Below are positions 14,195 to 63,520 of a stretch of DNA of 64,000 bases, piece after piece; position 1 is the stretch's first letter, and every line of letters begins with the position of its first letter. The translations under genes were made by a program, and so were the position numbers. The notes under the pieces are model-generated. The model worked only from the letters and a program-made list of their open reading frames with translations, did not search any database and was not told the origin of the DNA. The DNA lies in the sequence record NC_070982.1, one strand, 5' to 3'. Origin of the DNA: Escherichia phage vB_EcoP-101114UKE3.

Positions 14195-17100
14195 ATGGCT
14201 AATTTAAAATCGTGGGAAGAAGCTTCCAAAGCTCCTGCGTATCTGAACGCCTCTCCAGAGCAACAGGCTCAAATGAGAGAACAATACAAGGCAGCAGGGG
14301 GCACTATTCCTGAGACTCAACCACAAGAGCAACCACAACAAGAAGAACGAGGTGCTATTGGGGAGTTTGCTCAAGGTGTGTCTAACGCTCTTCAATCAGG
14401 TGGTGCTAACATTGCAGCTAGTGCTGCTAAAGGTTTAGGTGGGCTGGTAGAGATTGGTGAAAACTTAACTGGTTCGGAAACAAGCTATGGTAAGCGCATT
14501 CAAGAGAACTCTAAACAGTTGCTGGAAGAACGCTTATCTAAGATAGAAGATGGTTTTGGTAAAACAGCTGGTCAGTATGCTGGTGTTGCTGCTGATATTG
14601 GTTTGACAGTTGCAAACCCTGCTGTTGCTGCTGCTGTTATCGCAGCTCGTGAAACAGGTCGTGCTTATGCTGATCAAACTCCTAAAGAAGATGAAGATAA
14701 ATCAGTCTTAGATGCTGCTCTTGTTGGTGGTGCTAACTACGCTGCTCAGAAGATCCTTCCGGGCATGACTGGTACAGCTTCTACTACTCTTGGTCGTGTA
14801 GGACAAAGCGTAGCCTCTAACGCAGTTGCTGGTGCTAAGGGTGGTGCTATTGTTGGTGCTGCTGAAGCTCAGAACAAATATGGGGATGACACTACTCTAG
14901 CTAACGTATTAGAAGGGGCTATTGAAGAGGGTGCACTCGGTGCTGCTTATGGTGGGGCGATTGGTGGGGTTCATGGGTTAATAAGCCGTCCTAGCCCTCA
15001 AGTGTTTGATCGTACTCCTGAGCATGTTAAGACTGACATTGCTGCTGAAGATGAGGCTATTCGTAAAGCTGCTAACGCTGATGAACTTCGTGAAGCCTAT
15101 GCTAAAGCTGAGAATGCTAATGCTGCCTCTGCTTTAAACCTTCTGGATGAAAATGGTTTCCGAATCACAGATGCAGTTGCTATGGACTCTCCTGCTGTTC
15201 AGCGTATATTAAATACAGACCAAAGTCGTGCAGAGAAAGCTGCTACGGTTCAGAAAGATAGCTCTAATGTTCCCGGTCTCAATCCTCTCGCTTCTCCTAA
15301 GAAGACTCAAGGTAAAGCTTTTGCTGACAATGAGTACAACCAGAAACAAGCTGTGGCAATGAAAGATGCAATGGCTGACTACACTAAAGATAACACCAAA
15401 GCCCTTACTGATGTTCTAGACAACCTAGACCGAGAGTTAGTAGCTCTGAGAGCAAGTGGTGATTTTACTGGTAGTGCTATTGACATTAAAAACCGTACTC
15501 AAGCTGATCGTGATTTTATTGATGCTTATAAAACTTTTTACAGTGAAGCTAATCGTTTCAAAGCTCGTGATGGTGAAGACCTAAACAACTTCATTGATAA
15601 AGCTACTCAGTTGCAGAAGCTATCTGAAAATGTTTCTCCAGAAATGAAGAAGGCCATTGGTGGATTAAAGAAACTAAAAGGTATGCCTGAAGGTTTTAAC
15701 CCTATCCAAGATGCTTTCACTCTGAATAATACAGCTAAGTTCATGAGTAACCAAGACCGTGGTTGGACCTCTCTGACTGATGACGGTTTTCGTGAAGCTC
15801 CGGCTCCTGTGTTAGTTAAGAATCCTCTCGGTGCAGCCAAGTATGTACTTAACCGCTTTACTTCCGATCGTGCTCGTGCTCAACGTGAGAAGCAACAGTC
15901 AGCTAATAGTGAAGCTATCCGCTCTTTGGCTAGGGCTGATTTAGAAGTACAACGAGCTAGGACTCAGGCTGAAGAAGCAAGAGCAAAAATGGAAGAAGAA
16001 CCAACCACAGAAGACATCAAATTCCGTACTCAAAATGATGCACCTTCCGAACCGGTTCGTGAGGAGCCTTCTGCTACTACTGTGACGGAAGAAATTCCGT
16101 CCTCTCCAGCTCCAACTGAAACACCTCTTACTGCGAGGGATTTGGTTGCTCAAAGACGTGCTCTCCAACAAGCAGAGCTTAGACGTCAAGAAGCTGAAGC
16201 TGCTCAGGCTCAAGAAAGTGCTACACCAGAACCTGAACCACAGCAAGAAGCTCTTACAGCTAGAGAATTAGTAGCTCAGCGTAGGGCTGTAGCAGAGGCT
16301 AAGAAACGTCAAGAGGCAGAAGAAGCAGAACGTGCTAAAGAAGCTCCTGAGGAAGCCGTAGAAGAGCCTAAAGAGAAACCTGAGCCATTACCTGCTCGTG
16401 CTCCTAAAGCTCCTGAGAAGGCTCCTGAGCCTGTTAAACCGTCACTTGGTGTAGAGCGTCTAGCTTCTATGTCAACTGCTGCTCGTCAAGCAACGAAAGA
16501 CCGTGCTGATCGATTTGCTCGTTCTTTGTATTCGGCTGCTGCTAAAGCTAAAGCCACTGCGGAAAATTTCCTTTCTTACAAGGGAGATCCTAAAGAGCTT
16601 ATGCGTCGTATCCGTCAGGAAGACCAAGCAAACAACACACAGCGTCATGAAGAGATGGCTAGAAACCAACTAGCTTCACAGCAAGGCATTGCTTCTGCTA
16701 AATCTCAACATGTTCGTGCTTCTTTTGCTGATTGGGTGAAAGAACGTGGGTTGCCTTCTGATATTGCTACTAAGGCTTTACGGGCTGAAGAGAAAGGTTT
16801 AGGTGGGAACGTCACAAGTCTAGATTCACTGAAGCGAAGAGCTGAGCGTTTATATCAGAAACAAAGAGATGATGAGTTTGACCGTCTCTATCGAGAGGCT
16901 CTGGAAGAGAATAAAGCTTTTGATAAGAGAGATGCTCCTAAACTGGTAGACCAGAAGAAAGAGCTTCAGGATGAAATTGGTGCGTTGCTTGATGCTGAAC
17001 CGTTACGTCCTGCTCAGAAAGATGCTATGCGTAGGATTATGGAAGACTTCGTGGAGAGTAAGTTTAAATCTTCAGAGAAAGCTGGAAGGGTTGAGGCTTT

Positions 17101-50079: not shown

Positions 50080-50243
50080 AACTTCTCCTGTTTGTCACAT
50101 TGATTGGTTAGCCAGTTGTAAGACCCACTGTTGTTCTTGCTTAACTCGCAAGATGCAAAAGAGTACATCCTGACAAACCCCACAGTGGCTAAGCAAATAA
50201 AGATTGCTGCCAATAAGAATTTAGCTTTCAACTTATTATCCAT
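50076..50243 (-). CDS. small membrane/secreted protein (55 aa), not in ORF track
   Basis: MDNKLKAKFLLAAIFICLATVGFV...; GAGG SD; stop overlaps next ATG. Confidence 0.35.
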   Translation of the reverse strand: MDNKLKAKFLLAAIFICLATVGFVRMYSFASCELSKNNSGSYNWLTNQCDKQEKL

Positions 50244-50446
50244 ACAACCTCTTCTTTGAGCTTAAAAAAGGACTCTCCTAAGAGAGCCAAGCTTTAAGGC
50301 CAATTAAATAGATATCACCCAATATCTGTGGATAACCTGCTCTTAAAATATTCTATCCGACGGATGTTCGAGGATTATTCCTCTCCCTAGCATCGGCCCC
50401 ATACGGGAAAGATTAAATTAAGTTTAGGTTAGTTGAGCCAGAATAG

Positions 50447-50489
50447 CTCACATAGCCCTCTGATACTCACAAGGGCTATAGATGTTACT
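50447..50489 (-). repeat. conserved hairpin element, copy A
   Basis: CACATAGCCCTCTGATACTCACAAGGGCTATAG directly after stop codon; 8-bp stem, 12-nt loop; near-identical copy at 56084-56130. Confidence 0.5.
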
Positions 50490-50733
50490 CTGTGGCTCCG
50501 TCGAATCGGAGGATTGCTGCTGGAACAGGGTATGCTTCCAGATCTTCATCCAGTCGGTATAGATGCCCTGTACTTAAATTTACAGCTGTTACTGGCTTAG
50601 AGTGGCCTCCAGCCTGTATGGAAGGAACTCTGATAAAGAACTCTTCTGGATATTCAACAGAGTGGAACACACTTCCTGAATAAAGATCTTTTATTTTAGA
50701 AGTTTGTTTAGGAGTTTTATCAGCAATTTTCAT
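50485..50733 (-). CDS. small protein, five-member paralog family
   Basis: L-x-x-G-[DS]-x-F ... V-x-L-S-x-G pattern shared with 51854, 52124, 54939, 56130 ORFs. Confidence 0.45.
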   Translation of the reverse strand: MKIADKTPKQTSKIKDLYSGSVFHSVEYPEEFFIRVPSIQAGGHSKPVTAVNLSTGHLYRLDEDLEAYPVPAAILRFDGATE

Positions 50734-50966
50734 TACAGACCTTTCTTAGCACGATCTTTGGCAGTTTTGCCAGTGCGGATACGATGGGAAACATTAACCA
50801 GCTCGCCACCTTCGACGATGGTTACGCTTTTGTTTTTCGCAATATCAAACACAGTTTTCTCTGTGCCGCCCAGACGAATCTGTTTAGGCTCACTGTGGGT
50901 CTGAGTTGATTTAGACTGGAACTGGAACGGCTGACGGATGGCATCAATTGCGCTAACTTTAGACAT
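50733..50966 (-). CDS. small hypothetical protein
   Basis: 77-aa ORF. Confidence 0.4.
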   Translation of the reverse strand: MSKVSAIDAIRQPFQFQSKSTQTHSEPKQIRLGGTEKTVFDIAKNKSVTIVEGGELVNVSHRIRTGKTAKDRAKKGL

Positions 50967-50994
50967 GTTTTTATTACCTTACATTAAAGAGAGA

Positions 50995-51408
50995 TTAAAC
51001 AACGAATTGGAACGCTTCGTATCCAAACTTGTATAAGAAATCGTGTTTGAACTTTACTACACGACCACGATCGCGGAAAGCTTTCAGGCGACTGCTGAAC
51101 CCAACCATTGGCTCAGGGTCAATAGGGCTACGAATCTTCATAGCTACAGAGTGCAGCTTGAAGCGTTTACCAGTGCTACAGGCCATCATCACATACTCCA
51201 TACGAGTAGTCCAGATGTTGAGCACCATGCTTGTTTTCTCCGCTGACCAACCAGTCTTGCGGGCGATTTCTTTATGGACATTAAGCTCCAAAGGAAGAGG
51301 GAATTGCTTGTTGAATGAAGCCGGATATAGCTTGACCAGAAGGTCAATGTTTTCTTTATACGTTAAGTAAGCCAATTTCTTGCTTACGTTAGGGAATTTC
51401 CCAGACAT
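50995..51408 (-). CDS. ProQ/FinO-domain-like RNA-binding protein
   Basis: KENIDLLVKLYPASF..PLPLELNVHKEIARKTGWSAEKTSMVLNIWTTRMEYV...GKRFKLHS aligns by pattern to E. coli ProQ N-terminal domain. Confidence 0.45.
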   Translation of the reverse strand: MSGKFPNVSKKLAYLTYKENIDLLVKLYPASFNKQFPLPLELNVHKEIARKTGWSAEKTSMVLNIWTTRMEYVMMACSTGKRFKLHSVAMKIRSPIDPEPMVGFSSRLKAFRDRGRVVKFKHDFLYKFGYEAFQFVV

Positions 51409-51606
51409 TTTTGAAGCTCCAAAACAGCGCCGAAAAGAGAGGCGTCATAGTAGCTAAAAGGAGGAGAGAAGAGGGCTTATTTACTTGCCTTTTTCTGTCC
51501 GTTAATGTACCAGATAACTGAACCGTCAGGCTGTCGTTGACCGAAGCCTTTCAAGTTAACCATTTCTTCTTCAGAGTAGGCACGTTTTCTCACTGATTTT
51601 CTCCTG

Positions 51607-51864
51607 TCAGTAGAAGGTGTGTGTAGAGTCGTCGTTCATAGATAACCAAACGAAGAAGACAATCACACAGAAAGCAATAATACCGAGAGTTGCAAGGATT
51701 ATAGTGTTAGCTAATGTGATATCTAACACGCTTTGCAGATATATAAAGAACTGTACGACACCACATACCATCAGCACAACCCCAACGACAATGAGGAGCC
51801 AATATGTGCAGAGAAGGACTGCATCTAATAGTGATACATACTTTGGATGATCTTTATGTCTCAC
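51607..51864 (-). CDS. small membrane protein
   Basis: two or three TM segments. Confidence 0.4.
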   Translation of the reverse strand: MRHKDHPKYVSLLDAVLLCTYWLLIVVGVVLMVCGVVQFFIYLQSVLDITLANTIILATLGIIAFCVIVFFVWLSMNDDSTHTFY

Positions 51865-52120
51865 TGATCTTTTCCACTAAATCCAGAGTTGCTGATTCAA
51901 ATACAACACCAACTACCATATTAGGTGCCATATTACGAACGTATCCGCTCTGCATAGACACGGCCCGAGAGTATTCAGAACCGTTAGAACTTTTGTTTAC
52001 CTTCATGTAAAGGGTTTGCTCTTTATCTTCTTTCAGAGTAAAGAAAGAGCCGGGAAGAAGCCTCTGAACAGTCAGAGGGATATCTGCAACATGAGTCTTA
52101 TTGATAGTAAGAACTGTCAT
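51854..52120 (-). CDS. small protein, five-member paralog family
   Basis: LLPGSFFTLKEDKEQTLYMKV. Confidence 0.45.
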   Translation of the reverse strand: MTVLTINKTHVADIPLTVQRLLPGSFFTLKEDKEQTLYMKVNKSSNGSEYSRAVSMQSGYVRNMAPNMVVGVVFESATLDLVEKISET

Positions 52121-52123
52121 TGC

Positions 52124-52378
52124 TTATTCCTTAATAGTTGCTTCAGCTTTAATAGGAATAACAGCAACATCTTTACGAGGTGCTGTCGCTCGACCTGTGT
52201 TAAGGCAGGCTACAAGTCTATGCTCGTCCGCACCCTTGATGCAGAGTCGAGTTGAGAACTCAGTAGACAGCAAGATGTACAAATCATCATCTTCACTGTT
52301 AGGGTACATGAAGCAATCCCCAAGTCGTAAAGCACTGAGAGGTATTGCACTCTTACCTGCTGGTTTATTAACTTTCAT
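52124..52378 (-). CDS. small protein, five-member paralog family
   Basis: LRLGDCFMYPNSEDDDLYILLS. Confidence 0.45.
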   Translation of the reverse strand: MKVNKPAGKSAIPLSALRLGDCFMYPNSEDDDLYILLSTEFSTRLCIKGADEHRLVACLNTGRATAPRKDVAVIPIKAEATIKE

Positions 52379-52654
52379 TTTACCACCTTTAGTTATGGAC
52401 CAATTTATGAGAGAACTCTCGGAAGAATGCTTTCATAAATAGGGGGAGGGGACGAATCCTCCCATATCCTATTAATTAATATTGCATGTAAGATCTAACA
52501 ATTCGATGCTGTAGTGGATAGCGTAAAACGCTTACCGGCATTAAACCCAGCCCATGAGGGGCTTATGTGAATAAAATGCTCAACATTGAGCGGTTAGTTG
52601 ATAGGAGATCTGAAGTCCTATCTCAAAGGACTCTCGTAAGAATCCTTCACGATA

Positions 52655-52909
52655 TCACTTAGTAAGAAAGATTATCAACTTATCCGCTACCCAGCCTATT
52701 AACATAAGGACAGGTAAGAAGAAGATAAAGATCAGCATAAAAGGCCAGAAGAATATCACCGTCCAAATAGAAAGTATATCAGGCTGACCACTCCATGAGC
52801 AGTGGAAGAAGTTGTAGAGTGTATTGGTTTTGAAGCACCATTTAACTACAATGGCTGCTAACCACCAACCAATAACATAAATCAGGAGGACATACGCTGC
52901 TGTAACCAT
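52655..52909 (-). CDS. small membrane protein
   Basis: multiple TM segments. Confidence 0.4.
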   Translation of the reverse strand: MVTAAYVLLIYVIGWWLAAIVVKWCFKTNTLYNFFHCSWSGQPDILSIWTVIFFWPFMLIFIFFLPVLMLIGWVADKLIIFLTK

Positions 52910-53136
52910 TCACCGTTCCATTGATAGTTGCGAGTTACCACGTTTCCGTGGATAAGGAAGTGCTGGCGGCGAAGGATATCTTTAACGTTGTAGTAGGCAG
53001 CGTTACCGAGATGACCTTCTTTAATAAGCCAACGAAGATTACGGATATCAACCAACAGCATTTTTACTTGCTGTTGGCATGAAGTTTGAGCTGCTGTTTC
53101 AAGTAGAGCTTTCGTATCAGAATAATGACCGGACAT
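52882..53136 (-). CDS. hypothetical protein
   Basis: 84-aa ORF. Confidence 0.35.
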   Translation of the reverse strand: MSGHYSDTKALLETAAQTSCQQQVKMLLVDIRNLRWLIKEGHLGNAAYYNVKDILRRQHFLIHGNVVTRNYQWNGEWLQQRMSS

Positions 53137-53137
53137 A

Positions 53138-53464
53138 TCACCACTCCTTACCCTTTGTTGTTACAGAGCCACTACACTGTACACCACGGGAGATAAAGTC
53201 ATAACGCGACCAATCACCTTGTGTCTCCATATCACGCCCTACATAAGCCTTCTCATCAACAGCACCGCCGTTGGAACAAGAAGCACCAGCATAACGCATA
53301 TCAATTTCACCACTAGGAATCTTCTCCCCGCTGTGCCAACGGGAAACACAGACACCTTCTACCGATAATGCACACCATCCATCAGGACGATGCTGTACGC
53401 AGCCTGTAAGAGCTACACAGGCGATAAAGATACAGGTTAAGGTAATTACACCACCCCAGCTCAT
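53138..53464 (-). CDS. secreted protein/lipoprotein candidate
   Basis: signal peptide with LTGC lipobox-like motif. Confidence 0.5.
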   Translation of the reverse strand: MSWGGVITLTCIFIACVALTGCVQHRPDGWCALSVEGVCVSRWHSGEKIPSGEIDMRYAGASCSNGGAVDEKAYVGRDMETQGDWSRYDFISRGVQCSGSVTTKGKEW

Positions 53465-53601
53465 AATCCCTCCTGAAGCGCCTTACGGCGGCTATCTCGC
53501 CAAGCCATCCATAGGTAGGTTTTAAGTTCTTCTCTTTCTTCTTCGCTGAACAAAGGAGAAGTAAAGATATCATCGAACCACTCATTAAACTCAGGGGTCA
53601 T
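53461..53601 (-). CDS. small acidic protein (46 aa), replaces track ORF 53382..53585
   Basis: AGGAGG SD 4 nt before ATG 53601; TGA overlaps ATG of downstream gene. Confidence 0.35.
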   Translation of the reverse strand: MTPEFNEWFDDIFTSPLFSEEEREELKTYLWMAWRDSRRKALQEGL

Positions 53602-53740
53602 AAACCCTCCTATTTGATTTGGTGGACTATCTGGAATCGAACCAGAAGCTCACTAAGAAAGCAATTCCCACTGTTATAAAAGCACTTGCCTCAACAGGGA
53701 TACACTAACTTTGGTGCCGCACCCATACTAGCCCTAAATG

Positions 53741-53816
53741 TGGTGCGCCCTACAGGACTCGAACCTGTAACCAATAGCTTAGAAGGCTACTGCTCTATCC
53801 GTTGAGCTAAGAGCGC
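53741..53816 (-). tRNA. tRNA-Arg(UCU): tRNA-Arg (anticodon UCU), CCA encoded
   Basis: hand-folded cloverleaf: 7-bp acceptor, D arm GCTC/GAGC, anticodon loop CTTCTAA, T arm ACAGG-TTCGAGT-CCTGT, discriminator A plus CCA. Confidence 0.85.
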
Positions 53817-53824
53817 GGAATTGT

Positions 53825-54034
53825 TTAACTGAAGATACGCAAGGCCACATCATGACCAATATGACCGGGAACTTTATGCTGCTCTATTTTCAAGCAGCGC
53901 TTACAGATACGAGATACACGAGACTCTTTTCTCTCTACTGGAGTGTCTTTAGCGTGAGTGATGTGTAGGTTTTCAGTGATCACCCACTCGTGTTTACATC
54001 CAGAATCTTCGGGCTTTTTCTTACGAAAGAACAT
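53825..54034 (-). CDS. small zinc-ribbon protein (triplet member)
   Basis: start MFFRKKK; CKHEW ... CKRC. Confidence 0.4.
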   Translation of the reverse strand: MFFRKKKPEDSGCKHEWVITENLHITHAKDTPVERKESRVSRICKRCLKIEQHKVPGHIGHDVALRIFS

Positions 54035-54042
54035 AACACCTC

Positions 54043-54207
54043 TTAGATCAGATCTGTTTTCTTGTGCAGACCACACACTTTACAGCGAGAGTAGATACGC
54101 AACCCTTGTCGCTCTCTGTCAGTAAGTTTATTTGTGATCGTCAGTTCATAAGTATGAAGATCTTCCCACTCATGGAAATGAAATAGACGTTTGAACCATT
54201 TGATCAT
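54043..54207 (-). CDS. small zinc-ribbon protein (triplet member), not in ORF track
   Basis: 54 aa MIKWFKRLFHFHEW...CKVCG; near-duplicate N-terminus of 54217..54402. Confidence 0.4.
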   Translation of the reverse strand: MIKWFKRLFHFHEWEDLHTYELTITNKLTDRERQGLRIYSRCKVCGLHKKTDLI

Positions 54208-54216
54208 AATGATTCC

Positions 54217-54402
54217 TTAGATTACATCACGATGACTAATATCACCACACACCTTACACTGAATAATGTAACGTGTGCCCTTGTCATTGTTCCCATCTGA
54301 ATCCGTATAGACCAGAGGACGGGTGTTAATAATCTTCCAATCATGACAATGGAAGACACGCTTTAGCCACTTAATCATATTAAGCACACGCCGGTAATTC
54401 AA
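54217..54402 (-). CDS. small zinc-ribbon protein (triplet member)
   Basis: MIKWLKRVFHCHDW...CKVCG. Confidence 0.4.
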   Translation of the reverse strand: MNYRRVLNMIKWLKRVFHCHDWKIINTRPLVYTDSDGNNDKGTRYIIQCKVCGDISHRDVI

Positions 54403-54637
54403 TTAACTGAGGAGTACGACAAGGGCCATCCTCATACACACCTACCAGTGTTGGCATGTAAGGCCCAGCGCACTGGTATTCATCGAACAGTTCATTGTAA
54501 GTAGGCTTCCACTTCCAAGCCCACACATAACCCATTCGATCAATGGCAATGTAACGAGTGTTCAGAGGAACCTGCATCATCACATCACCAACTGCTATTA
54601 CTTTCGTAATAACTGCTGCTCGGAAGTTTGTCTTCAT
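54380..54637 (-). CDS. hypothetical protein
   Basis: 85-aa ORF. Confidence 0.35.
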   Translation of the reverse strand: MKTNFRAAVITKVIAVGDVMMQVPLNTRYIAIDRMGYVWAWKWKPTYNELFDEYQCAGPYMPTLVGVYEDGPCRTPQLIELPACA

Positions 54638-54942
54638 GACTTTGCAGCCTCCATCATTTTATTCATTTTAGCCACACCTTTACGGATAAGAGGCATAAAT
54701 TCATCAGCCAGTTCAGTGGATAAAAGTTTAAGCCCGCCTGATTTAATACCGTTCACCGCCTTCTCAACTTCATCCGACAGCAATGTCATTGTTAACCACG
54801 GGGATTTTATTACCACAGTAAAGCCCGGTTCATACCGCGAGTGACTGTAGGTGAACTCTAAATGAGTAACACCGGGCATCTTAGACATTTGAGCACGGAT
54901 ATCTACATTAGGGTTGCAGCGAGTTGAAGATGAAATTGTCAT
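54634..54942 (-). CDS. hypothetical protein
   Basis: 102-aa ORF. Confidence 0.35.
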   Translation of the reverse strand: MTISSSTRCNPNVDIRAQMSKMPGVTHLEFTYSHSRYEPGFTVVIKSPWLTMTLLSDEVEKAVNGIKSGGLKLLSTELADEFMPLIRKGVAKMNKMMEAAKS

Positions 54943-55190
54943 GGCGCTTTAATCTCAATCTGAACGTTGACGACGAATACAGTATGGTTTGCACTGTACA
55001 CTGAAGTGCCTATGATTGGCTTATCATCACTGAGGATTTCAACAGCGTGCTCAAGGTTAATCTTCAGATGAAGACGCCCTGATTCCATGAAGAAATCACC
55101 AGCACGTATCTCACCGAACTTAGCTGGCACACCGATAGAGGGTATCAGTATGTCAGTGCGACCTTTACGGTCAAATAAACGATTGAACAT
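54939..55190 (-). CDS. small protein, five-member paralog family
   Basis: IRAGDFFMESGRLHLKIN. Confidence 0.45.
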   Translation of the reverse strand: MFNRLFDRKGRTDILIPSIGVPAKFGEIRAGDFFMESGRLHLKINLEHAVEILSDDKPIIGTSVYSANHTVFVVNVQIEIKAP

Positions 55191-55199
55191 ATCACCCCC

Positions 55200-55409
55200 T
55201 TATGTAATATCAACCTCAAACCAACAGGTAAGAGCTTTTTCATTGTTGCGTTTTGGCTCAAAGGATTTAACAACCGATAACACTCGGCGCTGTTCTCCAT
55301 CAAACCAGATAGTTTCATCTTTTTCAGGGAGTAGGTTGTGTGCAGCACAAACAATCTCACCTAGTACAACCTGTCTGCCATCTTGCTTACGAACTAAACG
55401 AATGTTCAT
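55200..55409 (-). CDS. small hypothetical protein
   Basis: start MNIRLV after terminator hairpin. Confidence 0.35.
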   Translation of the reverse strand: MNIRLVRKQDGRQVVLGEIVCAAHNLLPEKDETIWFDGEQRRVLSVVKSFEPKRNNEKALTCWFEVDIT

Positions 55410-55452
55410 AACAACCTCTCTTGTTAGTTTAAGTAAGAGTTGTCCCTTAATT

Positions 55453-55483
55453 AAAACAACAAAGGCCACCCCTAAGGGCAGCC
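55453..55483 (-). terminator. intrinsic terminator
   Basis: minus-strand ggcugccc-uuag-ggguggcc with two G-U pairs (C-A on plus strand), then U-rich run. Confidence 0.5.
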
Positions 55484-55489
55484 TCTTAT

Positions 55490-55693
55490 TTAAGCGCAAG
55501 CACTACGCAGTTTGTTATTCAAGAAGCGATCTTCTGCATTATACAGGAATGCATAGAACAACTCTTTTGCTACATCCCGATCGCAATTGAGACATTTAGA
55601 GATCTGTAACAACAAACCATCACGACTATTAGGATGGTCAATTATCGCAAGACGAATAATCTCACGAATACCAATGTCATGCTCAGCCGCCAT
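55490..55693 (-). CDS. small hypothetical protein
   Basis: 67-aa ORF. Confidence 0.35.
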   Translation of the reverse strand: MAAEHDIGIREIIRLAIIDHPNSRDGLLLQISKCLNCDRDVAKELFYAFLYNAEDRFLNNKLRSACA

Positions 55694-56083
55694 AGAACCA
55701 ATCACCCTGACGTTTACGAATGTTAGTTGTCAGACGAAGCATGGCAGACTCAATCTTCAGAGCACCATTTGCTACTGCATCCATACGTTCAGGACGGTTC
55801 ATACGTTTGGTTGTCTTTTTCATAATGTTCTCTCTTTATTGATGGAGGCAGGATTGCCAGTTAATATAAAGGGAAGCCCTACACGTTAAGACTTCCGCTT
55901 GTACAAACTGTCGAGAACTCTCTACCCCTAGATTGTTCTCTATCCCAAACCGATACATACCCCTACATATCGGAAAGCTGTTCGAAAATTAACAGGTTTT
56001 AGTCTATCACCGGATGTTTGAGACAAGTCTCGCCCTAGCGGTGAGCCATATGGCGTTGAGATTATAGTTAATTGAGGAACACC

Positions 56084-56130
56084 CTCACATAGCCCTCTGA
56101 TAAACACAAGGGCTATAAGTCGATGTTACT
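56084..56130 (-). repeat. conserved hairpin element, copy B
   Basis: CACATAGCCCTCTGATAAACACAAGGGCTATAAG directly after stop of 56130..56360. Confidence 0.5.
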
Positions 56131-56360
56131 TAACCATTAATATGAGTTACTTGAACATCAGGTACAGGGATAACTTCATGGTCTTCCTGTAATTGGAACA
56201 GTGTCCCCTGACTAAGACCAACCACACGATGCATATCGTTAAGTCTAGTGTCTGTCTTTAGGTAGACATTTTCAGAGTTAGTTGGTAAACGGAACACATC
56301 GCCCGGACGTAACTCACTGAGCTTTTTAGTAACAACTACAGAGAAGAGATTAATTTTCAT
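56130..56360 (-). CDS. small protein, five-member paralog family
   Basis: LRPGDVFRLPTNSENVYLKT ... VVGLSQGTLFQLQED. Confidence 0.45.
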   Translation of the reverse strand: MKINLFSVVVTKKLSELRPGDVFRLPTNSENVYLKTDTRLNDMHRVVGLSQGTLFQLQEDHEVIPVPDVQVTHING

Positions 56361-56533
56361 TTGATTAACACCAAATCAGTACGACGTTCGAAGGAAGGGG
56401 AGGATTCACCATTCCACTGAACAAGATAACAGAGAACACCATCAATCGTTGTTCTCCGACGAATAACACCTGTAACAGTTCCACCAACAAGACGAACGGT
56501 GTCGCCAACGGTAAATTTAACCTTTGAGCGCAT
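56357..56533 (-). CDS. small hypothetical protein
   Basis: start MRSKVKF with AGGAG SD. Confidence 0.35.
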   Translation of the reverse strand: MRSKVKFTVGDTVRLVGGTVTGVIRRRTTIDGVLCYLVQWNGESSPSFERRTDLVLIK

Positions 56534-56822
56534 CTCCTGTTTCCTCATTCTGGCGTTTAATTTCTTCAGTGAGTTGCTTATTAAGATCTTGAATACGCTT
56601 AATCTCCCAACCCAAAGAAGCCAAACGATCGTTACGTGCTTCGATTTGTTCCTGCATTTTAAGTAATTTGGAACGAACATCAGCATTAAAAACTTCTTCT
56701 TGCTTAAGAAGGAACTCGTAACGACGCTTCCAGCTTGCTGATTTATTTCTTAAAATAATAAACCCTAGAGTAGAAACCGTTACAGTGAGTACGAAAAGGA
56801 ACTTATAAACCTCTAAAGACAT
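56517..56822 (-). CDS. membrane-anchored coiled-coil protein
   Basis: N-terminal TM then helical E/K-rich region. Confidence 0.4.
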   Translation of the reverse strand: MSLEVYKFLFVLTVTVSTLGFIILRNKSASWKRRYEFLLKQEEVFNADVRSKLLKMQEQIEARNDRLASLGWEIKRIQDLNKQLTEEIKRQNEETGDALKG

Positions 56823-57023
56823 ATCTTTATCCTCTTAAAGTAAGATATTATAAGAAATATTATTTAGAATTTATTATTTCTAAACTTAATTCCTATCAAT
56901 AATTTTCAGAGGTCTATATACAGTCATTACCTCTGGTCCCAAATCACTTCCACTTTTTACAGAGAAAATCATAAGTGTGTGATTTATAAGGAAATTTAGT
57001 TTGTCAATATTGGCACTTATGAA

Positions 57024-57410
57024 TCAGTCACGGGAGCTGTTATTGAACACTAAATCACCACAATACATCGGATTGGTATACCACTTTGGCACCCCTTCGC
57101 TCTTACTCTGAAAGTATGTACCGCTGTACAAAGGCACATAACCTTTCTTCAGTGCACGCCTTGCAAGCCGCTCGCTCTCTCTGATTGATTTCTTTATCAG
57201 AGGGTTATCATCACGAATTAGCTTTACATAACGCTTAAAAGGTTTCTCCTTCTTTAATAGGACGGGTATCCACTCGAACTGGTTTCGTTGATTTATAACC
57301 TGCTCGGCAGTCAGTTTTCGTTGTGACATTCTGTTTATTACGGTATCCGCTACTAATGCTTTGCAAGCGGTTGGCTGATTCCCTGCCTCATAATAAATAG
57401 TCAATGTCAA
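57024..57410 (-). CDS. SleB/CwlJ-like cell-wall hydrolase domain protein
   Basis: IYYEAGNQPTACKALVADTVINR matches IYAEARGEP..AV..V.NR core motif. Confidence 0.5.
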   Translation of the reverse strand: MTLTIYYEAGNQPTACKALVADTVINRMSQRKLTAEQVINQRNQFEWIPVLLKKEKPFKRYVKLIRDDNPLIKKSIRESERLARRALKKGYVPLYSGTYFQSKSEGVPKWYTNPMYCGDLVFNNSSRD

Positions 57411-57462
57411 AAGTAGCTGGGCTGTCGTTATCAGAACTTACTACCCCCTTGTTTTACGGGCA

Positions 57463-57489
57463 TAAAAAAGCCCCATCCGAAGACGGGGC
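57463..57489 (-). terminator. intrinsic terminator (TTCG hairpin plus U6)
   Basis: minus-strand gccccguc-uucg-gauggggc (G-U only on this strand) then uuuuuu. Confidence 0.55.
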
Positions 57490-57727
57490 GACCTGAAAGA
57501 GTGAACATGACCTCACTCATTTAAGAATCCTCGTAAAGACTCTTAAAAAAGAGGCCTCGTTAAAGGCCCGGTCAAATGACCATCCAATAGGGATTGAACC
57601 ATGCCAATGATTCACAAAGGGAGTTCCCTTTAGGTATCACTAGCTACGCAAAAAGCCGCACAAAGGCGGCAGACAAAGACGCTCAAGAAGAGCGTCATAG
57701 TAGTTGACCACTGGTCCAGAAGAGGGC

Positions 57728-58171
57728 TTACTTAACTCTTGCTGTTTTGAGTGGGTCAATATATTTTTCAACTCCCCACTTATGTTTACTATCAGCGTAG
57801 AAAACATCTGGTGCACATTGGCTAGTAGTAGGAAATGCTTTCGGTGGCTTAGTGCTACCTTTATTCTTCTGCTTACCTTTAGTGCGACCATTACAAAAGA
57901 TTTCTAAACGTTTTTCTTGTTCTGTTTTTGCTGCACCATTGGTTAACAGAGAACGCTTGTGATCAGCAAGAAGAAGCGCATCAGCACGATGAACACGACG
58001 ACCTAACACCTTCGCTACGGTAGAAGGTTTATGTTCTTGAGCGGCTTGTTTGATAGCTCTTCGTTTAAGGCTACGTTTGCTAATATGGTTAACAGCGGCT
58101 GGCTTTTCTTTTTCCAGCTCATTCATAGAGAACACTCGTCCGCCTTTCATGCTGATTTTAGATTTAGCCAT
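57728..58171 (-). CDS. hypothetical basic protein
   Basis: 147-aa K/R-rich ORF. Confidence 0.4.
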   Translation of the reverse strand: MAKSKISMKGGRVFSMNELEKEKPAAVNHISKRSLKRRAIKQAAQEHKPSTVAKVLGRRVHRADALLLADHKRSLLTNGAAKTEQEKRLEIFCNGRTKGKQKNKGSTKPPKAFPTTSQCAPDVFYADSKHKWGVEKYIDPLKTARVK

Positions 58172-58241
58172 TGTTTTATTCCTTTCGCTGATAAATTATA
58201 TCATGCAAGCCTTACCACATAGCAAGGCTTAACCAAATAAC

Positions 58242-58451
58242 TTAATCAATTAAACTAAACGATTTCCAACTACGTGTAATTGCTACCTTTTCGCCATCAA
58301 AGAGAACACTTACAGAGATCAGTTTACCGCGACAACTGGATACCGTGGTAATACGTCCGGTTAATGCCTTACCTTTATTCAGGTAGTGATAGCGGACACG
58401 ACGTCCTAACAAACGAGTAGCTTTCTTCTCTAACGTGCTTAAGCTGGTCAT
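58242..58451 (-). CDS. small hypothetical protein
   Basis: 69-aa ORF. Confidence 0.35.
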   Translation of the reverse strand: MTSLSTLEKKATRLLGRRVRYHYLNKGKALTGRITTVSSCRGKLISVSVLFDGEKVAITRSWKSFSLID

Positions 58452-58672
58452 TAAATAGCCCCTTTATGTTGGAGTGATCTTACACGACGATACATAACAG
58501 TTGATGCACTAATCGCCGCTTGTTTTCTTTCGTGCTCATGCTGATTCTTTCGAATCTTATCCATCTCGGCATCATTACGACGACGTTGTAAGATTCTGCT
58601 ACATTTGCGATGGTTGTTATTAGCACGTGCTTTCTTACAGATAGGGCAAAGGTGGGATTGAGTTAAAATCAT
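58451..58672 (-). CDS. small basic zinc-finger protein
   Basis: CPIC...C motif. Confidence 0.35.
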   Translation of the reverse strand: MILTQSHLCPICKKARANNNHRKCSRILQRRRNDAEMDKIRKNQHEHERKQAAISASTVMYRRVRSLQHKGAI

Positions 58673-58893
58673 TTGCGAAGCCCTAACTTACGAAGGAATC
58701 GGCCTAGCTTAGTTTCCTGCGTGATAGTGTAAGTAACAGAGTTTTCAATCAATGCTTGTTCTTGAATCGGCGACGGATACCACTCGCCAGTAAGAATGCA
58801 TTTGCATTCGATTCCGTATTTATCGGTTTTACGATATGTCATGTTGTTGAGAATGTTACGATACATCTTAACTTCTGTTTTCAGTTTTGGCAT
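58669..58893 (-). CDS. small hypothetical protein
   Basis: 74-aa ORF. Confidence 0.35.
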   Translation of the reverse strand: MPKLKTEVKMYRNILNNMTYRKTDKYGIECKCILTGEWYPSPIQEQALIENSVTYTITQETKLGRFLRKLGLRK

Positions 58894-59001
58894 GGTGTTT
58901 ATCTCTTTTTAGTTTCTTTGATTAGTACACTGAATCAATGCACTAGTAAAAGAAAAGGCGCTACCCTTTCGAATAGCGCCTTATGTGTTCTTTATTGTTG
59001 G

Positions 59002-59904
59002 TTATGCTGCCTGTTGGCGTGCTGCCATGATTTCGGCAGCTTTGCGCAACACTTCTTCTTCTTCCTGCGCAGCTTTCTCGTTCGCTTTGATAGTTGAAGC
59101 ATTTGAGATGCGACCACGAAGGTTAGACAATTTTTCAGTCATTTCGTTGATCGCTTTTTCCATTTCATCAGCGTATGAGTCCAGAGATTCAAGCTCTTTA
59201 GTCGAGGCATTAATCAGGTAGTCGTCGCTGATAGATACAGTTGATGCGGTCACTTTCTTAAGGAGTGAATCGAAAGTTTTCTTAACTTTGCCTACTTCTT
59301 CACTCAATGCGATAGTATTGTCAGAAGATGCGCCGTTGCGTTCATCTGCCAGTAGTGCCGCTTCAATACGGATTGCAGCCAGACGGTCAACCAGTGCATA
59401 AATATCCTGATTAAAGTTTTCGTTAACCTTCTGGTTGATTTGATTTGCTACCGGAACATTGTCGTTGCAACCTTTGTAGAATGCTGGGTTATCAACCTGC
59501 ACGTCTTCACCTTTAGCAAAGCGTTCAAAGGAATTAGACCAGCGGGCGCGGTTTTGTTCCATTTTGGCCTTAACTTGTTCCGGTTTAGCATCCTCTTTCG
59601 CTTTCGCTTCACCTTCCAGATTAATCCATTTCTTTTTACCGTTCGCCCCGTCAGTGTTATATTTGATAGGAGTAAGGAAAGAGATTGCAACCGAAATTAC
59701 ATCTAAATCACGATAACGCTCAGTTAACAAGAAATCAACCGCCGCCTGCAATACATCCAGTTTCTTACCGTTGGTGCGGAAGTGCTGCAAATGGCCTAAC
59801 AGGAAGTTAGAAACATCTTGTTTGATTGCCGCGTTGTTGCTACGAATGTTGTTAGCCAGTGCATTAAAGCCGGATTCGTTAACCAGATTAAAAACTTTAG
59901 CCAT
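59002..59904 (-). CDS. hypothetical early protein
   Basis: ATG 59904 (MAKVFNL) with AAGGTG SD; helical with E/K-rich C-terminus. Confidence 0.45.
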   Translation of the reverse strand: MAKVFNLVNESGFNALANNIRSNNAAIKQDVSNFLLGHLQHFRTNGKKLDVLQAAVDFLLTERYRDLDVISVAISFLTPIKYNTDGANGKKKWINLEGEAKAKEDAKPEQVKAKMEQNRARWSNSFERFAKGEDVQVDNPAFYKGCNDNVPVANQINQKVNENFNQDIYALVDRLAAIRIEAALLADERNGASSDNTIALSEEVGKVKKTFDSLLKKVTASTVSISDDYLINASTKELESLDSYADEMEKAINEMTEKLSNLRGRISNASTIKANEKAAQEEEEVLRKAAEIMAARQQAA

Positions 59905-59971
59905 GATATTCACCTTTCAATTGTAAGGGCACTATGCCCCGCTCTCTATGAGCTTTTTAAGTCACTATTGA

Positions 59972-60007
59972 CTTATCAATAATCACTCAATATCAAGTAA
60001 TTATTGA
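59972..60007. promoter_or_regulatory. perfect 11-bp inverted repeat TTATCAATAAT / ATTATTGATAA
   Basis: arms separated by about 15 bp, 70 nt upstream of first early gene. Confidence 0.4.
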
Positions 60008-60720
60008 TAAGCGAGGCGGTCTTATCAGGAGTTAACCTTGCCGCCTCCTTATCCGTGATGTTTCATCTGGTATCTTTAATTAGTCGCTATAAATAAAGCC
60101 GACCTGATAGCGATGATCAATCATCACAATAAGGCAGTGCGTCCGACTCTATTTAATTACTTTATCGTAACCGTCGGCAATATCGTCTACTTTGCTTTCG
60201 CTCCCGCCTATCCTTTTGTACTAACTCTCAATCGCTAACCATCGCCCACTACGGGAGGTTATTGCGAAAGAGTCATTAGCCGTCTAATACATTGACGTTT
60301 TATATCTTTCAGCAGGTTTACTACATAAACTGATTATGTACGCCATCAATAGTGGCCTCAAATCATTCACATCGTAAACGTTCACACTAAACCTTATTGT
60401 TAAATAGCAATTTGCCACTTTTTAACCATTCACCGCCGCCCCCAATTGGGCGTTAATTCGTCGGATTTGCCTACCCTGATAAACTTCTTTCACTGTAGCA
60501 CCTTGTTAGCGATGGCCGCCGCTACCCTTTAACCGTGGGCGATTAGTTTAGGCCGTTGCGTGTACTCAATGAATCCGTTTTATCAGTGGTGACGTTTCCA
60601 GTTAAGGGATTGTAAAAACTGTTTACCCTGATAATTTAGGGAGTCTTACGCCGTTTTATCTGGTATGTTTTCCGATGGTTATTATCATCCAACATATTCA
60701 ACCGATATAGGAGAATGTTT

Positions 60721-60737
60721 AAATTGTTAAAGAGCGG
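60721..60737. repeat. 17-bp repeat AAATTGTTAAAGAGCGG (copy 1)
   Basis: exact copy at 61088-61104; core TTAAAGAGCGG also near 60958 and partial near 61498. Confidence 0.5.
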
Positions 60738-60823
60738 TAAATCTATCAGTGTGCTTTCTCACACTATGCAACTGTTAGCCGTTGTTACGCTTTTCTTAAG
60801 CGGTGAATTGCTTAAGTGTGCTC

Positions 60824-60852
60824 ATTATGAATCATGCTGTTTTAGCTGTCAA
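60824..60852 (-). promoter_or_regulatory. sigma70-type early promoter P1
   Basis: minus-strand TTGACA, 17-nt spacer, CATAAT. Confidence 0.5.
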
Positions 60853-60990
60853 CCGCTTTTTTAATCTTTTTCGTCGTTCCCTTTATTGGGAGGATATATC
60901 AATCAGCTATATTTGATTGAAGATTAAGCGGTAAGGCTTAACTCACGATTCATATTTTTAAAGAGCGGTGTTTCTTACTGCTTGGTGAAC

Positions 60991-61018
60991 ATTCTATCAG
61001 AGTATTTCACCTTGTCAA
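60991..61018 (-). promoter_or_regulatory. sigma70-type early promoter P2
   Basis: minus-strand TTGACA, 16-nt spacer, extended -10 TGATAGAAT. Confidence 0.5.
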
Positions 61019-61087
61019 CTCTTTTTATCATCTTCTTTTATTCTATTCCCTTATCTCGCTTGAATCTATGCGAAAGGGCAAGATGAT

Positions 61088-61104
61088 AAATTGTTAAAGA
61101 GCGG
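61088..61104. repeat. 17-bp repeat AAATTGTTAAAGAGCGG (copy 2)
   Basis: exact repeat of 60721-60737. Confidence 0.5.
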
Positions 61105-61149
61105 GGCACTAAGTGCCGGATGTTTCAAGTCATCGCTGACCGTGTGAAC

Positions 61150-61177
61150 ATCTTATCATAATGATTCGATGTGTCAA
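61150..61177 (-). promoter_or_regulatory. sigma70-type early promoter P3
   Basis: minus-strand TTGACA, 16-nt spacer, extended -10 TGATAAGAT. Confidence 0.45.
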
Positions 61178-61239
61178 CAACTATTTTTCGATTAATGCAT
61201 CTTGATAAACTAGCGACCGTTAAGGCCGCTAACCTTACC

Positions 61240-61440
61240 TTAGTTCATACGTTTAAAGGTTAAATCTTTATCTGTACTTACCAGCGATAACACCGCAATA
61301 GCTTTGCCTTTATCGGCATCGGCTACCATCTCTTTTGCCTGCTGTAATGTACTACCGACTATTCTCATAATCATGTTAGTAACGTTAATGCTAGTGCAAG
61401 TGATTTGCGTGTCTTTGCTTGAGAAGGTGTAGATGTTCAT
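61240..61440 (-). CDS. small hypothetical protein
   Basis: start MNIYTF with GAGGA SD. Confidence 0.35.
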   Translation of the reverse strand: MNIYTFSSKDTQITCTSINVTNMIMRIVGSTLQQAKEMVADADKGKAIAVLSLVSTDKDLTFKRMN

Positions 61441-61799
61441 TGATAAATCCTCGTTATGGCATGGTTGAGAGTTTATCAAGATACACTAATCGAATTATTA
61501 AAGAGCAAGGCTAAACATCTAGCCTATCAGGAGGTAACTTACTGCATCACGTCCTGATAAGATTCAATATACACTATCCTAAAACCGTTGCAAGTCTTTT
61601 TCTAAAATAATTTCACTTTCTTTTAGGCATAAAGGAACGAACACACGAATAACATCAAGGGAGGAAGAAAACAAGCTCTATAATCGAAATCTAGGCACAT
61701 AGGAAGCATCCTAGCGAGCTAAACAGGGGCAAGATGTGCAATCACCTTAGAAATGAAAAAAGCGCCTCAAAAGGGCGCTTAGAGAGTCTTACGGATTGG

Positions 61800-63239: not shown

Positions 63240-63520
63240 TATTACTACTCCTGATAGATGAAAGATTGTTTGTCGTGTGTAGTTACTTAGGCTGATCAAC
63301 CTTCACTACTCACTATCACCGCTAACTACTTTACATCACTGCTTCATTAACGATAATTCAAACTACGATTGCAACTATATATTAAAGGAAAAACATGTCA
63401 ACCACTTATTTTCAAACTCTTTCATAACTCACTGAATATAAAAGGAATTTAATTTACTAAACTTTCTTACTCAGAGATACAGCTTACCAAATAGATGTTA
63501 TTTTATAACACTTACAGAAC

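Follow-up and report, generated by a model that had tools for sequence, protein, structure and literature searches.

Two related structured RNA elements in the early operon of a phiEco32-like coliphage, one with a segment complementary to the host nrdD leader

Results

Two copies of a non-coding element follow paralogous early genes

The DNA analysed here (the window) is a stretch of 64,000 nucleotides from Escherichia phage vB_EcoP-101114UKE3 (NC_070982.1), and the subject of this work is a non-coding element that occurs in it twice, as copy A at the end of the gene 50485..50733 and as copy B at the end of the paralogous gene 56130..56360. The two copies have a structured RNA module in common, and the 3′ part of copy A is complementary to the leader of the host gene nrdD, which encodes the anaerobic ribonucleotide reductase. 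Escherichia phage vB_EcoP-101114BS3 matches the region at 100% identity, and SU7, IME267, and ECBP2 are close to it; the group belongs to the Gordonclarkvirinae, genus Suseptimavirus, and comprises relatives of phiEco32. The genes around both copies lie on the minus strand of the early region, and the element strand is likewise the minus strand, that is, the sense strand of the early genes. According to the SU10 supplement, leftward transcription of the early region in this phage group begins at a small number of strong sigma-70 promoters at the right genome end. Strong sigma-70 promoters were found in the window at 63401, 61177, 61018, and 60852, which places the two copies 5-10 kb downstream of the early promoters, with terminator-like hairpins at 58982, 57696, 57670, 57569, and 57489 in between.

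Read from the upstream stop codon, the module consists of an AGUAACAYC box, the hairpins H1 and H2, an A/U-rich linker, and the hairpins H3 and H4. In copy A it is followed by the nrdD-complementary segment and a terminator, and the features of this copy are as follows.

50481..50489, minus strand: box AGUAACAUC, overlapping the stop codon of 50485..50733
50451..50480, minus strand: hairpin H1, stem base AUAGCC/GGCUAU conserved, stem top and loop variable
50434..50450, minus strand: hairpin H2, UGAGCUA/UGGCUCA
50408..50433, minus strand: A/U-rich linker ACUAACCUAAACUUAAUUUAAUCUUU, 5′ strand of the predicted long-range helix P0
50398..50407, minus strand: hairpin H3, CCC-GUAU-GGG, with a covarying 3-bp stem and a conserved RUAU loop
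50357..50396, minus strand: hairpin H4, with a 6-bp outer stem, a 7x7 internal loop CUAGGGA/GAACAUC, a 5-bp inner stem, and a variable loop
50318..50351, minus strand: 34-nt antisense segment AUAUUUUAAGAGCAGGUUAUCCACAGAUAUUGGG, complementary to E. coli nrdD mRNA -43..-10
50327-50335, minus strand: 9-mer TTATCCACA inside the antisense segment
50310..50327, minus strand: small hairpin AGAUAUU-GGGU-GAUAUCU, overlapping the 3′ end of the antisense segment
50264..50288, minus strand: intrinsic terminator GGCUCUC-UUAG-GAGAGUCC followed by U6, with a 7-bp GC-rich stem

The next start codon after the terminator is at 50243. In A-type copies conservation runs on past H4. RNAalifold, applied to 17 A-type sequences, predicted that the linker pairs with the sequence following H4 in the long-range helix P0, enclosing H3 and H4; P0 is followed by the invariant GGUUAUCCACAG and then by the intrinsic terminator. 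The terminator and its flanks are conserved from the coliphages to the Moazamiviruses, with a constant stem base and a covarying loop (GGCUCU...AGAGUCC and U6), and the small hairpin at 50310..50327 is absent from phage 7-11. The record of phage Paul annotates a 31-aa coding sequence inside copy A (L017 10033-10128), probably an over-call given the covarying stems and the indels between copies.

A first-pass annotation of the window had reported a hairpin, ATAGCCCT/AGGGCTAT, right after the stop codon of 50485..50733, and this was found as an 8-bp core with a 12-nt loop. The pattern TAGCCCT-N-AGGGCTA occurs twice in the 64-kb window, at 50453-50478 and 56090-56115, and gave 0 matches in 100 shuffles. 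A second block, TAATCT ... GCTAGGG-AGAGGAATAATCCTC-GAACATCCG-TCGGATAGA, was located at about 50418-50352, and both blocks do recur after 56130..56360, at 55996-56130. The identity of the upstream proteins, put at about 30%, was measured as 32% (23/71, E 3e-8). The identity of the element had been overestimated at 85-90%; in a covariance-model alignment copies A and B agree at 80/124 positions (65%), with 31 further gap columns. The same alignment gave 39/43 (91%) for the box and H1 and 30/48 (62%) for H3-H4, the latter block being maintained through compensatory change and not through sequence identity. The exchange GAGGA/UCCUC versus GAGAC/GUCUC, singled out earlier as compensatory, is real and is one among many; the outer stem of H4 reads CCGAUG/CGUCGG in copy A and UCACCG/CGGUGA in copy B, and H3 reads CCC/GGG and GCC/GGC. 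The interval first given for the element, 50280-50489, begins correctly at the stop codon and truncates the conserved unit, which extends from 50489 to the terminator U-tract at 50264. The 3′ domains, the terminators, and the complementarity to host nrdD are additions to that description.

The shared module is a covarying RNA found in three phage families

A blastn search with copy A matched 103 phage records. Kuravirus and Suseptimavirus carry two copies each, the A-type between homologs of phiEco32 gp91 and gp90 and the B-type between homologs of gp113 and gp112, and the element is kept in ~100 records of these two coliphage genera, so that its presence in related phages, on which the first description had been made to depend, was borne out. 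Copy A is 85-86% identical in DNA between the two genera, whereas a neighbouring protein is only about 55% identical. The Salmonella phages 7-11, SE131, and pSal-SNUABM-01 (Grimontviridae, Moazamivirus) each carry one A-type copy at 70-76% DNA identity.

A covariance model built from the copies scored known copies at 112-145 bits and found nothing else in the same loci. Across 19 distinct copies and 27 pairs, 95.4% of cells showed standard pairing, a figure that fell to 38-51% when the 3′ partner was slid by 1-3 columns. Double compensatory changes were present in 10/27 pairs, and the observed covariation score was reached by 0/500 shuffles. In the H4 outer stem, double changes affected 3/6 pairs, with up to four pair types at one position; by lineage this stem reads CCGAUG/CGUCGG, UCACCG/CGGUGA, RCACCG/CGGUGU, or UCGGUG/CGCCGA. 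H1 has nine pairs, 100% paired across the alignment, H3 occurs with the stems CCC/GGG, GCC/GGC, and GGC/GCC, and the two strands of the symmetric 7x7 internal loop of H4 are conserved as CUAGGGN (5′) and RAACAUC (3′). The box reads AGUAACAYC in nearly every A, B, and Moazamivirus copy. In the 19 distinct copies G.U pairs are frequent at five positions. On the complementary strand they would read as A.C mismatches, which identifies the sense strand of the early genes as the one that folds and makes the element most simply an RNA. Of the two options left open at first, an RNA or a DNA element, these pairs favour an RNA of the early-gene sense strand over a double-stranded DNA site. Retention across genera and families, together with the compensatory changes in stems, upholds the view that the element is functional and not a relic of duplication.

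Viral, metagenome, and genome collections were scanned with sequence patterns and then with the covariance model. The scans returned mostly the same phages, chance matches at 15 bits (the viral match L005 is probably a chance match too), and one divergent member, L057, a 48.7-kb contig (JBOFGJ010000684.1) binned as a Flavobacterium metagenome-assembled genome (MAG), whose proteins resemble those of Citrobacter phage CVT22 and Klebsiella phage Klyazma (Zobellviridae, Citrovirus). In L057 the stems of H1, H2, and the H4 outer helix have wholly different sequences with pairing kept, including complete covariation of the H1 stem, while H3 (CCC-AUAU-GGG) and the loop CUAGGGC/AAACAUC are unchanged. 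H2 varies as well: copy B has GAGG/CCUC, Moazamivirus GAGUUA/UAACUC, and L057 GGUAUACA/UGUAUAUC. Klyazma scored 30 bits and keeps the architecture with different stems and the loop CUAGGAA/UCUCCAUC; CVT22 has the same layout, as judged by eye. Moazamivirus and Citrovirus-like phages have a single copy. A further contig, L063 (CALKAR010000070.1), binned as a Peptococcaceae MAG, carries a Kuravirus-type copy A at 131 bits, and both MAG-binned contigs look like phage DNA, that of L057 being Citrovirus-like.

No copy was found in Cronobacter phage GAP52 or Erwinia phage Pecta, and no further copy in the right end of phage 7-11. The covariance model detected no third copy in the window or the examined loci, giving only reverse-strand matches to the H1 palindrome and 18-bit matches in Kuraviruses. 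The latter lie between gp78 and gp77 homologs of three Kuraviruses (L002 21648-21725, L016 19105-19182, and L017 19651-19730) and may be an H1-like hairpin. A search of the whole window with Rfam 15 (4227 models) returned only a tRNA-Arg (53744-53816) above the gathering threshold; at E<=10, copies A and B gave only weak unrelated matches of 10-21 bits and no C4-family match. Known RNA families were rejected, as none match; the module common to the copies is a genuine structured RNA and represents a new family. Separately, pSal-SNUABM-01 has an annotated ProQ/FinO-family protein, of the RNA chaperone class, in its early region ~6 kb upstream of the element (L014 5651-6379).

Copy A is complementary to the nrdD leader

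Comparison of copy A with 5,426 complete E. coli genomes gave one site in 5423/5426 of them, over 31-34 nt at 93.5-94% identity. The site falls in the interval that separates treC from nrdD, 10 nt before the start codon of nrdD, and on the other strand from that gene, which makes the sense RNA of the phage an antisense to the nrdD 5′ untranslated region (5′UTR). The segment 5′-AUAUUUUAAGAGCAGGUUAUCCACAGAUAUUGGG (50351-50318) is complementary to 5′-CCCAAUUUCUGUGGAUAACCUGUUCUUAAAAUAU of the nrdD mRNA, from -43 to -10, with GGAGCGAUCAUG immediately 3′ of the target, so that the target ends beside the Shine-Dalgarno sequence. The predicted duplex has 32 Watson-Crick pairs, one G.U pair, and one mismatch (U.U), and at 54 bits the match has an E-value of about 1e-7 in a search of one genome (our own calculation). 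A search of the phage collection with the nrdD leader returned 99 records, which apart from one Salmonella chromosome record and two weak matches all belong to this phage family; the Kuraviruses match at 34/37 positions. The target is downstream of the NrdR and FNR boxes and of TATAAT and, on the published descriptions of the nrdD promoter (PMC2892513, PMC12176259), should be inside the 5′UTR. The other early intergenic regions, searched as a concatenate, had no E. coli match at E<=10, and a search for self-targets within the phage gave only chance matches of up to 12 nt.

The antisense segment is the least variable part of the copy A intergenic region in coliphages: among 12 distinct coliphage A copies, 2/36 columns vary, as against 11-46% in other segments. 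The nrdD leaders of Salmonella and Citrobacter were located through TreC, and they have UGUGGAUAACCUGUUCUUA...AAAUAUGGAG in common with that of E. coli. The Salmonella phages carry an 18-19-nt complement to this common core, perfect over 19 nt in L031 and with two G.U pairs in phage 7-11; the coliphage pairing extends into the E. coli-specific leader sequence CCCAAUUU. Four of the five scorable differences from a perfect antisense (in coliphages, Paul, and 7-11) are A>G or C>U and keep the pairing as G.U, a wobble-preserving bias that is suggestive only.

Duplex scans with long sequences inflated the energies, and cofolding was used instead. Copy A (228 nt) cofolded with the leader (-90..+30) gave a ddG of -30.9 kcal/mol relative to the separate folds, compared with a mean of -7.7 and a best value of -11.3 for shuffled leaders, and -6.5 kcal/mol for copy B. 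In the predicted complex H1-H4 and the terminator stay folded, and P0 and the small hairpin open. The Kuravirus linker (ACUAACCUAAUCUUAAUAUAU) resembles the nrdD target in the sense orientation, at about 80% identity, and the linker in the window has an insertion. As the Kuravirus linker strand of P0 has two mismatches where the true nrdD target pairs, P0 looks like a weaker internal stand-in for the target duplex. Folding of the nrdD leader gave no stable or conserved structure that would decide between repression and activation. Copy A has the terminator with U-tail and the complementarity near a ribosome-binding site that are looked for in enterobacterial trans-acting small RNAs.

The nrdD 5′UTR DNA of E. 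coli, Salmonella, and Citrobacter was also seen to contain two TGTGGATAA (DnaA-box) sequences ~75 bp apart (L067 2500-2600, L068 4945-5045, and L070 4950-5050). The papers searched made no mention of DnaA control of nrdDG.

Copy B and the upstream proteins

Copy B has the same module and a 3′ domain of its own, with these features.

55996..56130, minus strand: shared module
56122-56130, minus strand: box
56088-56117, minus strand: H1
56073-56087, minus strand: H2
56055-56072, minus strand: linker
56045-56054, minus strand: H3
56007-56044, minus strand: H4, loop CUAGGGC/AAACAUC
55863..55995, minus strand: 3′ domain particular to copy B
55950-55973, minus strand: hairpin H5, with a UA-GGGG-UA cap
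55913-55940, minus strand: hairpin H6, with a UA-GGGG-UA cap
55872-55896, minus strand: terminator-like hairpin followed by CUUUAUAUU, weaker than the copy A terminator

The next start codon is at 55823. B-type copies are 310-360 nt long and have the two extra long hairpins and the weaker terminator-like hairpin. Within the limit that seeds shorter than ~20 nt are invisible to the search, copy B had no match at E<=1 and none of at least about 22 nt in the 5,426 E. coli genomes. Copy B would be a sister RNA in which the common scaffold carries another effector domain. UAGGG is a repeated motif, present in the H4 loop, H5, H6, and the final hairpin of copy B, and in Klyazma (GGUAGGGGUAUC). Hairpins with a UA/UA-closed GGGG tetraloop (UAGGGGUA) were observed in copy B (55913-55973, minus strand) and in Klyazma (L065 about 15440-15452).

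The proteins encoded upstream, by 50485..50733 and 56130..56360 (minus strand), form a family that has no other member in the early region, and they fall into PHROG families of unassigned function. The 76-aa protein was modelled confidently (pLDDT 84) as a small SH3-like beta-barrel, which had no significant structural match in the PDB; the closest barrels, of the KOW, eIF5A, Tudor, and FeoA-like kinds, reached an E-value of 0.057 at best. A homolog is likewise encoded ahead of copy B in phiEco32 and of the only copy in Moazamivirus, and it is missing before the Kuravirus copy A and in LAMP. A fixed linkage to neighbouring genes was rejected, the downstream genes being unrelated between copies and lineages.

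Discussion

The reading preferred here, to which a probability of roughly 0.5 is attached from sequence comparison and folding, is that the two copies specify paralogous small RNAs within the operon, built on a common scaffold, and that copy A acts in trans as an antisense regulator of host nrdD. Each copy would comprise the shared 5′ structured module, a copy-specific 3′ domain, and a terminator hairpin. Both would be transcribed within the early message from the sigma-70 promoters near 60.8-63.4 kb, the 3′ end being formed at the terminator and the 5′ end probably by a cut within the A/U-rich linker or immediately ahead of H1. The 34-nt segment of copy A (37 nt in Kuraviruses) is predicted to pair with the nrdD 5′UTR from -43 to -10, up to the Shine-Dalgarno sequence. 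In the free RNA the segment would be partly held in the imperfect P0, which the better duplex with nrdD would displace. The likeliest outcome would be that nrdDG is repressed, either because the long duplex blocks the ribosome-binding region or because RNase III cuts that duplex, and repression is considered more likely because the 34-bp duplex ends at -10; opening of the leader, and hence activation of nrdD, is the alternative outcome. The H1-H4 module may serve as a scaffold for stability, processing, or protein binding. The transcript ends, the action in trans, and the direction of regulation are all inferred.

Several points weigh against this reading. Complementarity to nrdD is lacking in copy B, in L057, and in the Citrovirus copies, and the nrdD link accounts for the 3′ domain of copy A and not for the shared module. 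The folding predictions place some of the antisense segment in internal pairing of the phage RNA, in P0 and the small hairpin. The Salmonella phages have no extension of the pairing into Salmonella-specific leader sequence, and the diversity of the alignment amounts to about four lineages, so that independent compensatory events are few. The literature searches found no RNA-end, abundance, or interaction data for these phages, and a discrete small RNA is therefore unproven. The benefit to a phage of repressing the sole anaerobic ribonucleotide reductase is not obvious. In addition, the segment holds a perfect DnaA box and the nrdD leader two, and part of the similarity could possibly have arisen at the DNA level.

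It is unlikely, though by no means negligible, that the element is purely a cis-acting module of RNA punctuation, the nrdD complementarity being a captured host fragment or a DnaA-box coincidence. On that account H1 and H2 would shield the upstream cistron at its 3′ end, RNase E would enter at the A/U linker, H3 and H4 would protect the downstream fragment, and the terminator would attenuate read-through. Such a role suits the start of H1, always 4-20 nt past a stop codon, the setting in a long operon with about ten terminator-like hairpins, and the presence of the module in copies without any nrdD match; the paralogous gene upstream of both window copies and of the Moazamivirus copy also fits a 3′UTR role. 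A stabiliser would, however, have no need of an invariant 7x7 internal loop and a conserved RUAU loop, and a near-perfect match of 34-37 nt to a single host site is far beyond chance. The nrdD-complementary segment is moreover the most conserved one in the coliphages, and its substitutions favour changes that preserve wobble pairing. A role in processive antitermination, in which the nascent H1-H4 would bind RNA polymerase and permit read-through of the terminator, as with the put sites of HK022, appears very unlikely. The likeness to putL/putR of HK022 and nutL/nutR of lambda lies in the occurrence of two related non-coding RNA elements per genome upstream of early-operon terminators. Here each copy is 60-130 nt upstream of an intrinsic terminator with early genes beyond it that have no recognisable promoter, and published maps put early promoters only at the far right end. 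The put and nut sites are, however, short, promoter-proximal, and act on RNA polymerase, whereas copies A and B lie 5-10 kb past the promoters, with five terminators preceding them, and antitermination leaves unexplained the 34 nt over which copy A is complementary to a host mRNA. The copy number is one in Moazamivirus and Citrovirus-like phages, and the boxA sequence CGCUCUUUAACAAU, which follows each strong early promoter, fits the put/nut role better.

That copy A acts as DNA, either as a DnaA-binding site or as a part of a replication origin with hairpins in single-stranded DNA, is likewise most improbable. The sole perfect TTATCCACA of the 64-kb window does sit in copy A, is invariant in all A-type copies including those of the Salmonella phages, and has two counterparts in the homologous nrdD leader of E. 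coli, Salmonella, and Citrobacter. One box is, however, to be set against 0.73 expected by chance per window, there is no cluster, and copy B and the Citrovirus copies have no box. A DnaA site could account for the 9-mer alone, since DnaA recognises 9 bp and not 34-37, and G.U-rich stems are strand-specific. A replication origin is not supported, with a single DnaA box and a flat skew profile in which the cumulative GC skew has no inflection near 50 kb. The layout of a conserved structured domain, a terminator, and then genes would also suit a leader that senses a ligand or a protein (a riboswitch or attenuator), and a TATAAT-like hexamer 2-6 nt upstream of H3 in every copy would suit an internal promoter for the downstream genes, yet this pair of explanations is also very unlikely. 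No Rfam match was obtained even at E<=10, and the downstream genes have nothing in common from copy to copy. By inspection no copy or lineage has a -35 element at 16-18 bp, and a promoter, for which the first-pass annotation had proposed a check, is not supported; a start 7 nt past the hexamer would fall inside the covarying H3, the promoter scan detected none in either copy, and scan and inspection together gave no convincing internal sigma-70 promoter. An internal promoter was accordingly rejected.

A more speculative and rather doubtful extension of the antisense reading is that H1-H4 is a protein-binding handle for modular phage RNAs whose exchangeable 3′ domains are aimed at different host messages, nrdD being the first target. 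It is suggested by the recurrence of UAGGG motifs in the H4 loop, in the H5 and H6 caps, and in GGUAGGGGUAUC of Klyazma. The modelled SH3-like protein encoded upstream in the window and in Moazamiviruses could be the binding partner of such a handle.

Among known systems, the RNA proposed for copy A resembles DicF of the Qin prophage in being phage-derived and non-coding, in lying inside a polycistronic operon, in ending at an intrinsic terminator, and in the proposed base pairing near the ribosome-binding site of a host mRNA. DicF is likewise intra-operonic, is made by termination with RNase III and RNase E processing, and represses host ftsZ and other mRNAs. However, DicF is 53 nt long, comes from a defective prophage, and uses short imperfect pairing, whereas the present RNA belongs to virulent phages and has a ~130-nt conserved four-hairpin module and a 34-37-nt near-perfect complement; the two have no sequence or Rfam similarity. 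PreS of lambda (LPR1) is likewise encoded by a phage, and it aids the lytic cycle by pairing with dnaN, an essential host gene of DNA synthesis. It differs in belonging to a temperate phage, in its target gene, in enhancing translation, and in having been found by RIL-seq, while copy A is known from computation alone. The c4 RNA of P1/P7 and the CI RNA of P4 are structured antisense RNAs that are released from longer phage transcripts and act via short complementary stretches; their targets are messages of the phage itself, and RNase P carries out their processing. A structured phage RNA cut from a longer transcript would be common to these systems and the present one, although the scans gave no C4-family match.

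Small RNAs of virulent phages that act on host genes are barely documented, and in a 2025 review of phage small RNAs the terms 'lytic phage', 'virulent phage', and 'ribonucleotide reductase' are all absent. The complementarity yields a precise and testable prediction, a 34-nt duplex beside the nrdD Shine-Dalgarno sequence. In the absence of oxygen, as in the gut where these phages live, NrdD is the sole functioning ribonucleotide reductase, and the phages are also candidates for therapy. Independently of nrdD, the covariation supports a new structured RNA family across three phage families, with an internal loop that has no known counterpart, and this family is a candidate for RNA family databases. 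If the protein-binding handle were real, it would amount to a phage-borne, programmable, RNA-guided silencing or activation of host genes in virulent phages.

Other features of the early operon

About ten terminator-like hairpins were observed on the transcribed strand of the early operon (50271-61780, minus strand), and those at 57569 and 50288 have a common tail, CTTTTTTAAG. The three strong promoters 61177, 61018, and 60852 are each followed by a boxA-like sequence, CGCTCTTTAA(C/A)AAT, and two of these three sites extend to CCGCTCTTTAACAATTTA. The sites CGCUCUUUAACAAU and CGCTCTTTAA match the boxA of E. coli rrn leaders. A boxA after each strong promoter suggests host Nus-type antitermination, and given these sites the long early operon probably uses the host Nus antitermination complex. 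The positions are listed below.

61780, 58982, 57696, 57670, 57569, 57489, 55896, 55486, 52463, 50288, minus strand: terminator-like hairpins
60723-60736, 60954-60967, 61090-61103, minus strand: boxA-like sequences

A tRNA-Arg gene (anticodon TCT) was also noted at 53741-53816 on the minus strand, within the early operon between copies A and B.

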